Assembly: GCF_053078305.1 (NCBI RefSeq)
Contig: NZ_CP166879.1
Direction: 5' to 3' (one strand)
DNA: 64,000 bases
The translations under genes were made by a program, and so were the position numbers. Within the stretch, counting starts at the first letter, position 1; each line of letters starts with the position of its first letter. Under the pieces are notes generated by a model. That model was given only the letters and a program-made list of their open reading frames with translations, searched no databases and had not been told where the DNA came from. This document shows positions 6,632-56,872 of the stretch, in pieces.

Positions 6632-6930
6632 AATGGCAGCCTCTTGGTTGAGTATTAATAACTCACCACCAAGGTTTTCCACGACCATAAGGGTGGTGAG
6701 ACGTACAGGGGTGGAAATACCGGTCAACCAAGAATCCGGCCAGCCTTGCGGCTGCCCTGCACGCCCCACCATAATCTGAATGTGGCTGTGCATTACGCAT
6801 AAAAAAACCGCCTGAGCGCGGTTATGCGCTTGATTGAATTCCGGGTTTCCACGCCCGGCACCCGCTTTATGAGGTGCAGATGAACTATAATTCCACCCGT
6901 TCTGGTTTTCAATAGCTACATTCAACATTT
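6632..6930 (-). promoter_or_regulatory. Structured leader with intrinsic-terminator hairpin upstream of rha; homologous to satellite leader at 35684-36045
   Basis: Hairpin ACCGCgctcagGCGGT plus U7 near 6795-6825; conserved blocks shared with second copy. Confidence 0.45.
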
Positions 6931-7119: not shown

Positions 7120-7178
7120 AAAAAGGGTGGCAGAGCAGTCACGGAGTAGAACTGATGCCACCAAAGACTACACATGGG
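7120..7178 (-). ncRNA. dicF: DicF-like small RNA
   Basis: Minus strand reads ...ggtggcatcagttctactccgtgactgctctgccaccctttttaaagtgaattttgtgatg, matching recalled DicF core and downstream flank. Confidence 0.6.
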
Positions 7179-14094: not shown

Positions 14095-14385
14095 CCTGGC
14101 CTGAAGCATTAACAACGGTAGGAATTGCGATGGCGGTGGCGCTGGTGGTGTATTCGATTTGCCGCTGGGGATAAAAACGGTTTGCGGGAAAAGGAGAGTT
14201 AAGTAGAATTGCAGCGGGTGCTTGAGGCTATCTGTCTCAGGCATGAACACCAAAAGGCAGATAGAGAAAAGCCCCAGTTAACATTACGCGTCCGGCAAGA
14301 CGCTTAACATTAATCTGAGGCTCAATCTGTGAACGGCAAATCTAGGTTAGCCTCTTACGCGCCGAAAGGCAAGGAGAAGCAGGCT

Positions 14386-14541
14386 ATGAAGCAGCAAAAG
14401 GCGATGTTAGTCGCCCTGATCGTCATCTGTATTACCGTCATTGTGACGGCACTGGTAACGAGGAAAGACCTCTGCGAGGTACGAATCCGAACCGGCCAGA
14501 CGGAGGTCGCTGTCTTCACAGCTTACGAACCTGAGGAGTAA
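14386..14541 (+). CDS. hok: Hok/Gef-family type I toxin
   Basis: 51 aa MKQQKAMLVALIVICITVIVTALVTRKDLCEVRIRTGQTEVAVFTAYEPEE; upstream in-frame extension resembles mok. Confidence 0.7.
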   Translation: MKQQKAMLVALIVICITVIVTALVTRKDLCEVRIRTGQTEVAVFTAYEPEE

Positions 14542-14643
14542 GAGACCAGGCGGGGGAGAAATCCCTCGCCACCTCTGATGTGCCAGGCATCCTCAACGCA
14601 CCCGCACTTAACATGCTTCGGCGGGTTTTGTTGTATTAGAATA

Positions 14644-14961
14644 TCAGGATATTACCTGGATCCCGTTTTTCTCGACAACTGAAAGAAGCCGAAGAGCTGC
14701 ACCTCCCGGGCGTTTCACTCCTCGTTCCCAGTCTGATATCAGGTTTTTACTGACGTTGAGGTATCTGGCAAAAACAGGTTGAGACAGATGCTCTCGTTCT
14801 CGCAGTGCACGGATCCTTTCTGGAGACATTACCGGCGCAGGCTGAAGACAAGTTTCATCGAATTCGCGCATAGTTTGTTTTGTGATTGCACCGATATCAT
14901 GGAGTGACTCCATCATTTCATGTACAGATGCAAGTGCATCACTGCGGTAATTTTTACTCAT
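14644..14961 (-). CDS. HTH (XRE-type) antitoxin of type II TA pair
   Basis: 105 aa, C-terminal HTH; overlaps upstream toxin gene by 8 nt. Confidence 0.65.
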   Translation of the reverse strand: MSKNYRSDALASVHEMMESLHDIGAITKQTMREFDETCLQPAPVMSPERIRALREREHLSQPVFARYLNVSKNLISDWERGVKRPGGAALRLLSVVEKNGIQVIS

Positions 14962-15325
14962 TGGGTACCTCCGTGAACTGGCCTTGTTGAATCAATTGTG
15001 CCAGCTGTTCATCAGTAAGATTGAGGACATGGGGAGCGGCTTTTCGAAAAGCATTTTCCTCTATAGCAGTGATATTCTCTCGTTCATTCTTTGCGTATGC
15101 GTAGATGAAAAAGGCTTTTTCTGCAACGCGGTAAAAAATTATTGTCCGGTAACCGCCTGATTTTCCGCCACCACTTCGGGCTAATCTTTGTTTAATGACA
15201 CCACTACCCAAATTTGCGGATATGATCCCCTTATCGGCCAGCTCCACGATTTTGCGCAGCGATTTATCGGAAATCCGATGTTTTCGGGCGAAACGTTCAA
15301 ACCAGGCGTTTTTGAAAATTCGCAT
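14954..15325 (-). CDS. RelE/ParE-superfamily toxin (HigB-like)
   Basis: 123 aa; ...GGYRTIIFYR...FIYAYAKNEREN...; toxin-first gene order. Confidence 0.65.
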   Translation of the reverse strand: MRIFKNAWFERFARKHRISDKSLRKIVELADKGIISANLGSGVIKQRLARSGGGKSGGYRTIIFYRVAEKAFFIYAYAKNERENITAIEENAFRKAAPHVLNLTDEQLAQLIQQGQFTEVPNE

Positions 15326-15503
15326 ACCTGCCTCTGCATTTTATATAACACATAGTGTTACACCATGTGGACTATGGAGGCAATCTTTATTTGAGAATGC
15401 TTGCTGATTTATCGGTGTTCAAAAAACAGACGTAATTCAGATTGTATAAACGGCAGACAGAAAAAGTCATTGTTCTTGCGCATAAAATCCTCAGATTTAC
15501 TGA

Positions 15504-15776
15504 GTGAAATGCGTCTCTTTTCATGGTTATAGTCCGAGAGAAGCGATAATGCATTTCATTTCCTTTACGTCAGGAGGTGTTGTGAAAATCCCAGCCAGTT
15601 TGATCCCGGGGTTTTATGAGAGCACGCGCCCGGTTGTTGTTTACAGAAACAGTGATGGTTCTTTTCAATGTGGTTTTGTTATGCGAAGTAATGAGGTTGT
15701 TGTAAGCCTTTCTCTTCTTTCTGAGGTAAGAGAGTTGGCAGGATTACCTGTTGATGATATTCAGAAGCAGCTATAA
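15504..15776 (+). CDS. Hypothetical protein
   Basis: 90 aa ORF, weak support. Confidence 0.3.
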   Translation: MKCVSFHGYSPREAIMHFISFTSGGVVKIPASLIPGFYESTRPVVVYRNSDGSFQCGFVMRSNEVVVSLSLLSEVRELAGLPVDDIQKQL

Positions 15777-15811
15777 AATCAGGCTGACTTGAACCGTCGC
15801 TGAGAAACACC

Positions 15812-16102
15812 GTGCCACCGGAGATCCCGATGGCGCACGATATCAAACATCACAATTCTGATACCGGCCCTGCCAGCAGGCACGGGCGGCGTTCTCACAC
15901 ATTCAAATCTGACTGGTTCCTGCATGACCCATGCACTGAAGAACAGGCCGAATGGCTGATTCAGTGCTACCGCAGACGCGGGTATAAGTTTGAGAAAGCC
16001 CTCAGTCTTGACCGTCGCCACTGGATAATCTCCGTCAGGCTCCCTTATTCCGAACGCCCACCGCGTCCGTCCCGTACATTCCAGCAGCGCATCTGGAGGT
16101 AA
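15812..16102 (+). CDS. Hypothetical protein
   Basis: 96 aa preceding the DUF968 gene. Confidence 0.35.
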   Translation: MPPEIPMAHDIKHHNSDTGPASRHGRRSHTFKSDWFLHDPCTEEQAEWLIQCYRRRGYKFEKALSLDRRHWIISVRLPYSERPPRPSRTFQQRIWR

Positions 16103-35683: not shown

Positions 35684-36045
35684 TGAGAAATCATACCACA
35701 CACCCGCAAGGGCGGGACTCGCACAACCTGAATAAATACATCTGGCGTTTTCTGGCCCGAAAAAACCAGTTGATCGCCAGTGTCGAAAATAGCTATGATT
35801 CCCGCGCACCTCATAAAACGGGTGCCGGGATTGGCGTCCTGGGCAAAACTGAAGCGCATAACACGCGCCCCGCGTGTTTTTTTGTGCCGCATAGTCACAC
35901 CTTATCAATGGTGGGCTGTACGGGGGCGGAGCAATCCGCGCCGGTTTCTTCAGTGTCCGGTTACGCCAACCCTGTACAGTCCGCCACCAGCGAAATTGGC
36001 GTTTCCGGTGGCGGTTATCTTAACCACACTGAGGAGGCTGCCAAC
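35684..36045 (+). promoter_or_regulatory. Structured leader with terminator hairpin; homologue of rha leader at 6632-6930
   Basis: Conserved blocks plus hairpin ACACGCGccccGCGTGT followed by U7. Confidence 0.45.
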
Positions 36046-54649: not shown

Positions 54650-55180
54650 ATGGCAAAACGCGTTACAAAATTAAAGGCCGCAGCAGAGGCGGCACCGCAG
54701 ACCCGTGAAGAGGTCAGCCGCGATATCCGCACCCTGGGCGATATTCAGCGAGAGGCGCTGCGCCTGGAAACAGCGATGAATGATGAAGTGGCAGAAATCA
54801 CCGCCCGTTATACGCCGCAGATTGAAAACCTTAAAAAAGAAATCAAAGTGCTTTTTAAGGGGATTCAGGACTGGTGCAAAACCAACCGTGATGAGCTGAC
54901 GAACGGCGGCAAAACCAAAACTGCCAATCTGACCACCGGAACAGTGTCATGGCGGCTGGGAAATCCATCATGCAGCGTCAGCCGTGATGTGGAAGGTGTG
55001 ATTGAAATGCTGCGCCGTATGGGGCTTGAGCGATTCATCCGCACGAAAGAGGAAGTGAACAAGGAAGCGGTCCTGGCGGAGCCGGATGCAGTGAAAGGCA
55101 TTGCCGGTATTAAGGTGAATAAAGGCGCTGAAAGTTTTTATGTCGAGCCTTTTGAACAGGACGCCGGACTGAATAAATAA
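54650..55180 (+). CDS. gam: Gam-like host-nuclease inhibitor
   Basis: ...IGDIQREALRLETAMNDEVAEI...ANRDELTNGGKTKTANL...RFIRTKEEVNKEA... matches Mu Gam. Confidence 0.85.
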   Translation: MAKRVTKLKAAAEAAPQTREEVSRDIRTLGDIQREALRLETAMNDEVAEITARYTPQIENLKKEIKVLFKGIQDWCKTNRDELTNGGKTKTANLTTGTVSWRLGNPSCSVSRDVEGVIEMLRRMGLERFIRTKEEVNKEAVLAEPDAVKGIAGIKVNKGAESFYVEPFEQDAGLNK

Positions 55181-55277
55181 CACCGCATTAAATCTTTAAA
55201 TATCACATCGTTTTAAGTATGGCGCTCGCGTCAGGGGACTGTCTGCGCCTGTAAACTGAAAATAAGGAACAGGATAT

Positions 55278-55820
55278 ATGGCATATTTTTATTTCAAATT
55301 AGACCGTGTGCAGACAAATAAATATTTCACCAAATATCAACAGACTGTTTTACCGCTACGCAACAGTATTCTTCGGGCATTACTGAAAAATACAGGCGCT
55401 GCCGGATTGCGCTTAAAGCCGTTTGCCATGGACGTAATCAGTGAGTTTTATTTTTCTGGTACTCTGCCTGCGGGCTGGCGTAAGCGCGATGATGTGGCTT
55501 TTATCGGGGACGGACCGTGCTTTATTGCCAGACCTGATGAGTCATGCCCTGAAGGACCGGCGATTGCCGCAATGATTGAAGCCGCTGAACGCGAGTTAAG
55601 AAAGCGTCCTGATTTCCTTGTCTGGCTCTGTGAAAAGCTGGGGGTAATGAGAATCCCCTCCATGTTTAACATGGACTCCTGGTGGACCCCGTCGCTCTCC
55701 CGTGATGCCCTGTGCGTGGTGTTTAAAGTAGGCGCTTATGGCAGGGAAATAAAAGGGGGTATTCCTGAAGAATGCCAGGAGATTAAACATTCTGAATATG
55801 TGGCGCTGACGGAGGAATAA
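55278..55820 (+). CDS. Hypothetical early protein
   Basis: 180 aa. Confidence 0.4.
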   Translation: MAYFYFKLDRVQTNKYFTKYQQTVLPLRNSILRALLKNTGAAGLRLKPFAMDVISEFYFSGTLPAGWRKRDDVAFIGDGPCFIARPDESCPEGPAIAAMIEAAERELRKRPDFLVWLCEKLGVMRIPSMFNMDSWWTPSLSRDALCVVFKVGAYGREIKGGIPEECQEIKHSEYVALTEE

Positions 55821-55823
55821 TTC

Positions 55824-56357
55824 ATGATTGATGCAAAAGTGCTTGAAGGGGTTAAAAACTGGCTGAGTATTTACGGGCGTCTGACCTGCGGAGTTCTGGC
55901 TGAAAAAATGAATATGCCGCCATCCTCGATGGTTTATTTTCTGCGTGATGCGGTTGATGCCGGGGTGCTGACGGAATGTAACGGTTTTTATGATATTCCG
56001 CGTCCCCGCCCGGTGCAGCCGGTTCGTCGCAAATGCAGCCAGGAGTCTGCGGCTGATGATGTTCAGTGGTGCAGCTTCAGAAAATCCCTGCCGTGGATTG
56101 AGGGGCATGATATTCCGTCGATGGCGTGGGAATTTGCTCAGGGCATACTGACCTGTGAAACCGTTTATGTGGTGGCTGAAGTTGATGAGCAGGCCATGAA
56201 AGAAGGCGTGCCCCAGTTTGTGATGGCGTATATCGACATACGCCTGGGTGTCATTATCTGCGGTTTAAGCGGCTGGAATATCACCTCGCGCGTTCTGCGT
56301 TACCTGATTGTTGACCGGACGGCCGCGCCTGCCGGGATATCTGCGGAGGTGGCGTAA
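55824..56357 (+). CDS. Hypothetical early protein
   Basis: 177 aa. Confidence 0.4.
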   Translation: MIDAKVLEGVKNWLSIYGRLTCGVLAEKMNMPPSSMVYFLRDAVDAGVLTECNGFYDIPRPRPVQPVRRKCSQESAADDVQWCSFRKSLPWIEGHDIPSMAWEFAQGILTCETVYVVAEVDEQAMKEGVPQFVMAYIDIRLGVIICGLSGWNITSRVLRYLIVDRTAAPAGISAEVA

Positions 56358-56872
56358 TGTTCTTTAAAACATCAAACCCTTCCGCGCTGGCCGCGTGGCA
56401 AAAATATCAGCAGGACTGCCAGAAAGTTAAGGATGAGGCAAAACGCCTTGAGGCCGTGCTGAATGTTGCGTGCCGGTCGGTATTTGTATCCGGTATCAGT
56501 GGCTTTTGTTTTAAAGGGCTGCGCTTTATGGATGACAAATATCCTTTTCATCGCGACTTATGGCGAAAACCGACTGCGTCGAATGGCTGGAGCTGCACAC
56601 CGCGCACATCACGTATTCCCAAAGCCCTGCGCGTTGCCTCTGACGAACTTAACAGTCTGTGGCGTGAATATTCGCCCGTCACGTATGCCAGAACCGATGC
56701 ACTGTTGTTCTGGCTGGGTATTGATTTCTCGGCAATCATGTTTGGCCCTGTGAAGTGGTTCTGCGTTGACGATGTGATTTACCTTGAGTGCGGCGTAAAA
56801 CCCGCAAATCAGAAAATGACCGAAATTCTGTCTGATGAGTTTTATGCTGCTGAAAAGCGAGTCAGGGGGTGA
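56357..56872 (+). CDS. Hypothetical early protein
   Basis: 171 aa, coupled. Confidence 0.4.
   Translation: MFFKTSNPSALAAWQKYQQDCQKVKDEAKRLEAVLNVACRSVFVSGISGFCFKGLRFMDDKYPFHRDLWRKPTASNGWSCTPRTSRIPKALRVASDELNSLWREYSPVTYARTDALLFWLGIDFSAIMFGPVKWFCVDDVIYLECGVKPANQKMTEILSDEFYAAEKRVRG

Follow-up and report, generated by a model that had tools for sequence, protein, structure and literature searches.

PF06296 ("RelE") is the Pfam family of HigB-2 from Vibrio cholerae, in which the toxin gene precedes the antitoxin gene and the toxins cleave mRNA in a ribosome-dependent manner; the 2025 survey of the RelE/ParE superfamily keeps it distinct both from PF05016, to which RelE of E. coli K-12 belongs, and from the HigB families PF05015 and PF09907, and also records that V. 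cholerae higBA-2 stabilises plasmids (PMC11980606). The active-site residues of HigB-2 were defined by mutagenesis as R51, R64, Y82 and K84 (PMC5416850). The same paper describes the N-terminal segment of HigA-2 as a disordered element that neutralises the toxin, and distinguishes HigB of the Rts1 type from HigB-2 by the layout of the active site and the mode of antitoxin binding (PMC5416850). The footprinted operator of V. cholerae HigA-2, TGTACGC-N5-GCGTACA, is a single 7-N5-7 repeat lying across the -10 element (PMC11006873).

We analysed a stretch of 64,000 nucleotides from contig NZ_CP166879.1 (NCBI RefSeq assembly GCF_053078305.1), referred to below as the window. It contains two genes that very probably make up a type II toxin-antitoxin operon of HigBA-2 type, carried as autonomous cargo on the opposite strand of a lambdoid E. 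coli prophage. The elements of the module are as follows.

14954..15325, minus strand: higB-2-type toxin gene, an ORF of 123 aa with an ATG start, of the PF06296 "RelE" family.
14644..14961, minus strand: higA-2-type antitoxin gene, an ORF of 105 aa with an ATG start, encoding an XRE helix-turn-helix protein.
14954..14972, minus strand: gene junction, comprising an 8-nt overlap and a GGAGG Shine-Dalgarno sequence, read from the sequence.
15331..15335, minus strand: AGAGG Shine-Dalgarno-like element, 5 nt 5' of the toxin ATG, read from the sequence.
15344..15362, minus strand: operator-like inverted repeat TGTAACA-CTATG-TGTTATA, from pattern match and family conservation.

The preliminary description of this DNA had placed a RelE/HigB-like toxin 5' of an XRE-HTH antitoxin at 14644-15325, with the toxin gene first and an overlap of 8 nt. 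Coordinates, order and overlap are all exact and the gene anatomy is established; the strand, which had not been given, is minus. The overlap occupies 14961..14954 (coding strand, ATGAGTAA), and the GGAGG Shine-Dalgarno sequence for the antitoxin sits at 14972..14968, within the 3' end of the toxin gene; translation of the two genes is probably coupled at this overlap. The module is slightly AT-richer than its surroundings (GC 0.459 vs 0.502 for the window).

A profile search, proposed earlier as a check, matched the toxin to PF06296 along the entire profile (positions 1-120 of 120, E = 5.8e-47, 159.3 bits against a cut-off of 27), with no other Pfam family at E<=0.01, and the antitoxin to HTH_3 above the cut-off (E = 1e-07). 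The RelE/HigB-like toxin and XRE-HTH antitoxin are thus borne out by these matches, and the assignment narrows to the HigB-2/HigA-2 type; family membership is established. The two ORFs lie far beyond chance, given these profile matches and the presence of the exact proteins in public collections. The exact toxin is RefSeq WP_044191309.1, "type II toxin-antitoxin system RelE/ParE family toxin", and the exact antitoxin is present on at least 1,000 contigs, where its annotation goes no further than HTH protein or DNA-binding regulator. NCBIfam holds no specific model for the toxin and returned one spurious sub-threshold SDR match. The toxin family is large, with 2,270 clusters at 50% identity reaching E<=1e-3.

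When the PDB was searched with the toxin by phmmer, V. cholerae HigB-2 alone was matched (E = 3e-4); a profile of 76 family members raised this match to E = 7e-9 and brought in E. coli RelE marginally (E = 0.76). The HMMER alignment sets R47, R60, Y77 and K79 of the toxin against R51, R64, Y82 and K84 of HigB-2, and conservation of the catalytic residues in the family is established: K45, R60 and K79 do not vary among the 76 diverse members, in which R47 reaches at least 90% conservation. Position 77 is tyrosine in the window and phenylalanine in most close relatives; two residues before it, on the same strand face, is an invariant tyrosine, Y75. The toxin is predicted, by analogy with HigB-2, to be a ribosome-dependent mRNA endonuclease. 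It probably adopts a RelE-like fold, an assignment that we base on sequence since the predicted structure is poor (AF2 model from a 30-sequence alignment, pLDDT 61, core below 50) and the fold search was uninformative (Foldseek of this low-confidence model against the PDB gave only noise, best E 1.6).

The antitoxin carries its XRE helix-turn-helix at residues ~44-99, and its best solved relative is HigA-2, both by sequence (7e-8) and by profile (3e-9). Its AF2 model is good (pLDDT 82), the top Foldseek matches are the HigA-2 entries 5jaa and 5j9i, and the C-terminal domain of the model superimposes on HigA-2 with an rmsd of 1.0-1.5 Å over 62-63 residues (target TM-score 0.81-0.85 for 5j9i). 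The N-terminal ~45 residues are strongly conserved in 20 homologues and modelled as two helices (pLDDT 58-86). Alignments to HigA-2 begin at residue 44, with no detectable sequence similarity between the two N-termini, and therefore a neutralising role of the N-terminal region of the antitoxin, which we consider probable, is drawn from analogy with HigA-2. Other resemblances of this protein are generic: NCBIfam matches (the MqsA family, PRK10072, DicA, NadS and others) all fall below the cut-offs, so none was used for naming, and PADLOC-DB 2.0 returned for the antitoxin only general HTH matches such as RmrA, control protein and capH.

The helix-turn-helix also resembles P22 C2 and the controller proteins of restriction-modification systems, which raises the question of whether the two genes belong together at all, or whether the HTH protein is a phage regulator of the Cro/CI type that happens to adjoin an unrelated small protein. 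We give this reading practically no credence. The repressor/Cro region of the prophage itself lies elsewhere, apart from the module, and both partners find their best match in one solved toxin-antitoxin complex. Moreover, the overlapping pair is conserved across phyla and outside phages: the toxin-then-HTH arrangement recurs with an 8-nt overlap on a Halomonas chromosome, in Salmonella lambdoid prophages and on many phage contigs, and with a 23-nt overlap in a cyanobacterium. An antitoxin-like ORF lies just 3' of the toxin in 52 of 56 phage-contig loci (IMG/VR). Conserved pairing is therefore established, and we treat the two genes as a single HigBA-2-type operon in what follows.

The two partners are not equally conserved. 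When 14644-15325 of the window was compared with loci L002, L004, L006, L008 and L030, the antitoxin proved more conserved than the toxin of the same loci (67-76% vs 58-61% identity), and at L030 the toxin is 85% and the antitoxin 99% identical. Toxin-antitoxin pairs usually show the opposite, a hint either of additional constraint on the antitoxin or of recombination within the module. Among 38 phage-contig copies of the enterobacterial type, 24 are intact and 14 (L036-L049) have a frameshifted toxin gene, in at least four distinct alleles with the shift near codons 5-17, near 32, near 95 or at both 15 and 95; some of these frameshifts may be artefacts of assembly. All 38 copies keep an intact antitoxin ORF, which is 99-100% identical in the 14 toxin-broken ones. 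Phage PhiR12_3 (PV340552.1; L010:4300-4800) likewise combines a frameshifted toxin with an intact antitoxin. That the toxin is lost repeatedly while the antitoxin is kept fits what would be expected, judging from these sequences, if free toxin harms the cell, and the toxin-broken copies may be orphan antitoxins or anti-addiction copies.

Could the toxin then be functionally inert, with the conserved HTH protein as the real product, acting as a regulator or an anti-addiction factor? The imbalance in identity described above is what such a reading would predict, as is an antitoxin kept at 99-100% identity where the toxin is only 75-85% identical or broken. However, the toxin ORF in the window is full length with all key residues present, and its product matches a RefSeq protein exactly and shares 100% identity with that of an intact phage-contig copy (L012). 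We consider an inert toxin highly improbable for the window, and retain the reading of a presumably active HigB-2-type toxin with its antitoxin.

What controls the expression of the pair? A 19-bp inverted repeat, TGTAACA-CTATG-TGTTATA (15362..15344), lies 18 nt 5' of the toxin ATG; it has 7-N5-7 geometry, overlaps A/T-rich -10-like hexamers and is the single match in the window, vs 0.08 expected by chance. We found it by eye and by pattern search; a repeat finder with a 6-nt seed missed this imperfect palindrome. Its conservation is established, as E. coli O157, phage PhiR12_3 and Salmonella loci all keep it 5' of the toxin gene despite differing flanks. Across the family, 32 of 48 unique upstream regions contain a T.T-anchored 7-N5-7 repeat within 70 nt of the toxin start, vs 2.8% of random windows, and the half-sites covary symmetrically between subfamilies (TGTAACA/TGTTAYA, TATGCGC/GCGCAYA and TATGCCC/GGGTATA). 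Autoregulation by the antitoxin is supported because the repeat is conserved, covaries and shares the geometry of the HigA-2 operator, and comparison of the sequences thus supports 15344..15362 as a putative HigA-2-type autoregulatory site.

The flanking signals are less distinct. A consensus scan detected no sigma-70 promoter adjoining the repeat or the toxin start, and inspection by eye gave no confident assignment of -35 and -10 hexamers around the repeat; the sole minus-strand promoter match, at 15470..15441, falls beyond the stretch that is conserved in other copies. A scan for a terminator 3' of the antitoxin was also negative. Overlapping the operator-like repeat, and displaced from it by 6 bp in the upstream direction, is a second inverted repeat, ACATGGT-GTAAC-ACTATGT (15344-15368, minus strand; 6/7 complementary and perfect in L039), which may represent another register for binding or mere internal periodicity of the sequence.

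The prophage setting proposed in the preliminary description agrees with the phage gene content of the window and with the annotation of close relatives. The window is a lambdoid prophage with genes for an integrase, a RecE-like exonuclease, a repressor-type HTH protein, a DnaC-like replication protein, a Q antiterminator, a DNA methylase, a lysozyme and a gpA terminase, and close relatives in EHEC O157 and O145 genomes are annotated alike. EHEC prophages commonly carry the module, and of 5,426 complete E. coli genomes 202 contain 80% or more of a 1-kb query with the module at its centre. The phage genes around it all lie on the plus strand, therefore transcription of the minus-strand module runs against theirs. 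Phage vB_EcoS-689R5 is homologous up to 14629, where the hok transcript region ends, and again from 15827 onwards, which marks 14630-15826 as a swappable cargo slot; in vB_EcoS-689R5 the slot holds a different gene, for a hypothetical protein of 131 aa. The slot in the window also contains a plus-strand ORF of 90 aa (15504-15776) without a Pfam match. In phage PhiR12_3 a copy of 14655-15362 alone, 79% identical, sits in another part of the genome, which shows that the module with its operator moves as a unit of ~0.7 kb. The type II module faces a type I system, hokD/sok, tail to tail, and 102 bp separate the two stop codons.

14216-14391, plus strand: sok (Rfam, 109.7 bits).
14329-14541, plus strand: ORF with a Hok/Gef Pfam domain, hokD itself occupying about 14386-14541.

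The adjacency of hokD/sok and the type II pair means that two addiction-type systems share one prophage slot.

Several other features of the window may be recorded here. An isrK and C4 antisense RNA pair is present in two copies, at 6689-6877 (minus strand) and 35806-35991 (plus strand), ~29 kb apart and above the Rfam gathering score, which points either to duplication of an antirepressor-immunity module or to another segment of phage origin. Further Rfam features at 7125-7176 (minus), 19758-20006 (plus) and 20837-21049 (plus) are DicF sRNA, three tRNA genes and STnc100 sRNA. The three tRNA genes lie 3' of the Q antiterminator and the DNA methylase, a late-region layout typical of Stx-type lambdoid phages, and between the tRNAs and 21647 there is no ORF of at least 120 aa save one of 167 aa. 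Beyond the prophage, five ORFs of similar size (171-183 aa) follow one another at 54650-57427 on the plus strand and may form a chromosomal operon flanking it.

The remark in the preliminary description that such modules often serve abortive infection or stabilisation is a general one. That the module occupies a variable cargo slot and runs counter to the phage operon also invites the view that its main role is phage defence, by abortive infection or superinfection exclusion, with the mRNase freed when an invading phage shuts off host transcription or degrades the antitoxin. Relatives within the RelE superfamily do defend (HigB-type TAC systems and PD-lambda-2), and T4 exclusion has been reported for the neighbouring hok/sok family. 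Nevertheless, the toxin gave no matches among the defence-system models of PADLOC-DB 2.0, our literature search found no defence report on members of PF06296, and the family also occupies ordinary chromosomal sites and the Vibrio superintegron, where stabilisation has been shown. The many toxin-dead phage copies argue, too, against strong selection for defence. Overall, defence against superinfecting phages is a plausible alternative, though we regard it as an unlikely main role. In a more elaborate version, the HigBA-2 module beside hokD/sok would be a superinfection-defence unit triggered by phage transcription shut-off, and the toxin-dead alleles would be counter-defence orphan antitoxins that neutralise the resident toxin; this we hold to be very unlikely. 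What the pair most likely serves, alongside hokD/sok, is the selfish maintenance of itself and of the prophage.

A mechanism for such maintenance can be proposed by analogy with the V. cholerae homologue. The operon would be transcribed leftward from its own promoter, and the toxin would bind the ribosomal A site and cut mRNA under translation, leading to growth arrest. The N-terminal ~45 residues of the antitoxin would wrap round the toxin and block it, while the C-terminal helix-turn-helix of the dimeric antitoxin would bind TGTAACA-N5-TGTTATA and repress the operon. Should the supply of antitoxin fail, upon loss of the element or shut-off of transcription, the more stable toxin would be freed.

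The pair is already annotated publicly and its family is characterised both structurally and biochemically, so the system as such is already known, although a literature search found no experimental studies on the E. coli pair. The labels could be sharpened, with higB-2/higA-2-like in place of the generic "RelE/ParE toxin" and "HTH domain protein", and the likely operator could be marked. Beyond correct annotation the significance is small. Since the module is common in EHEC prophages and stands beside hok/sok, it could offer a handy natural test of prophage stabilisation vs phage exclusion, for which the alleles with a dead toxin and an intact antitoxin are natural controls.

Among the known systems, several were considered and set aside. 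Three-component TAC systems do not apply, as a third gene is absent: the hokD terminator comes directly after the antitoxin. Acinetobacter baumannii HigBA2 was not taken as a relative, since the paper on it notes hardly any homology with other RelE systems. MqsRA is also toxin-first, and the antitoxin HTH is weakly similar to the C-terminal domain of MqsA (PF15731 0.0033 and TIGR03830 3e-8, both below cut-off; Foldseek match 3gn5); however, the antitoxin has no N-terminal domain of the zinc-binding CxxC kind, the toxin is not MqsR and the scores lie below the curated cut-offs. HigBA of Rts1/Proteus vulgaris and of E. coli K-12 shares with the module the toxin-first order, an HTH antitoxin and a ribosome-dependent mRNase, but the toxin has no match at E<=0.01 to the Rts1-type HigB (PF05015) or HigB_toxin (PF09907) families. 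RelBE of E. coli K-12 (Qin prophage) and the ParE family belong with the toxin to the RelE/ParE BECR superfamily; RelBE is likewise prophage-borne, and ribosome-dependent mRNA cleavage at the A site is expected in both cases. K-12 relBE presumably also adjoins hokD. In K-12 RelBE, though, the antitoxin gene comes first and its product RelB is a ribbon-helix-helix protein rather than an XRE HTH protein, and canonical RelBE/ParDE was rejected on the lack of a PF05016 match, the reversed order and the XRE HTH antitoxin.

The nearest system of solved structure is V. cholerae HigB-2/HigA-2 (superintegron; PDB 5JAA, 5JA8, 5J9I and 8A0X), even if the likeness is remote (toxin E = 3e-4; HTH domain 35% identical), the toxin in the window is 13 aa longer than HigB-2 at the C-terminus and the host element is a lambdoid prophage here vs an integron cassette there. 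The toxin is likewise of PF06296 and encoded first, and the catalytic Arg, Arg, Tyr and Lys of HigB-2 are conserved in it. The antitoxins are collinear, with an N-terminal segment followed by the XRE HTH (44-99 here vs 38-93 in HigA-2; 105 vs 104 aa), and the operator of HigA-2 is likewise a 19-bp 7-N5-7 repeat starting with TGTA, its half-site TGTACGC differing from TGTAACA here.
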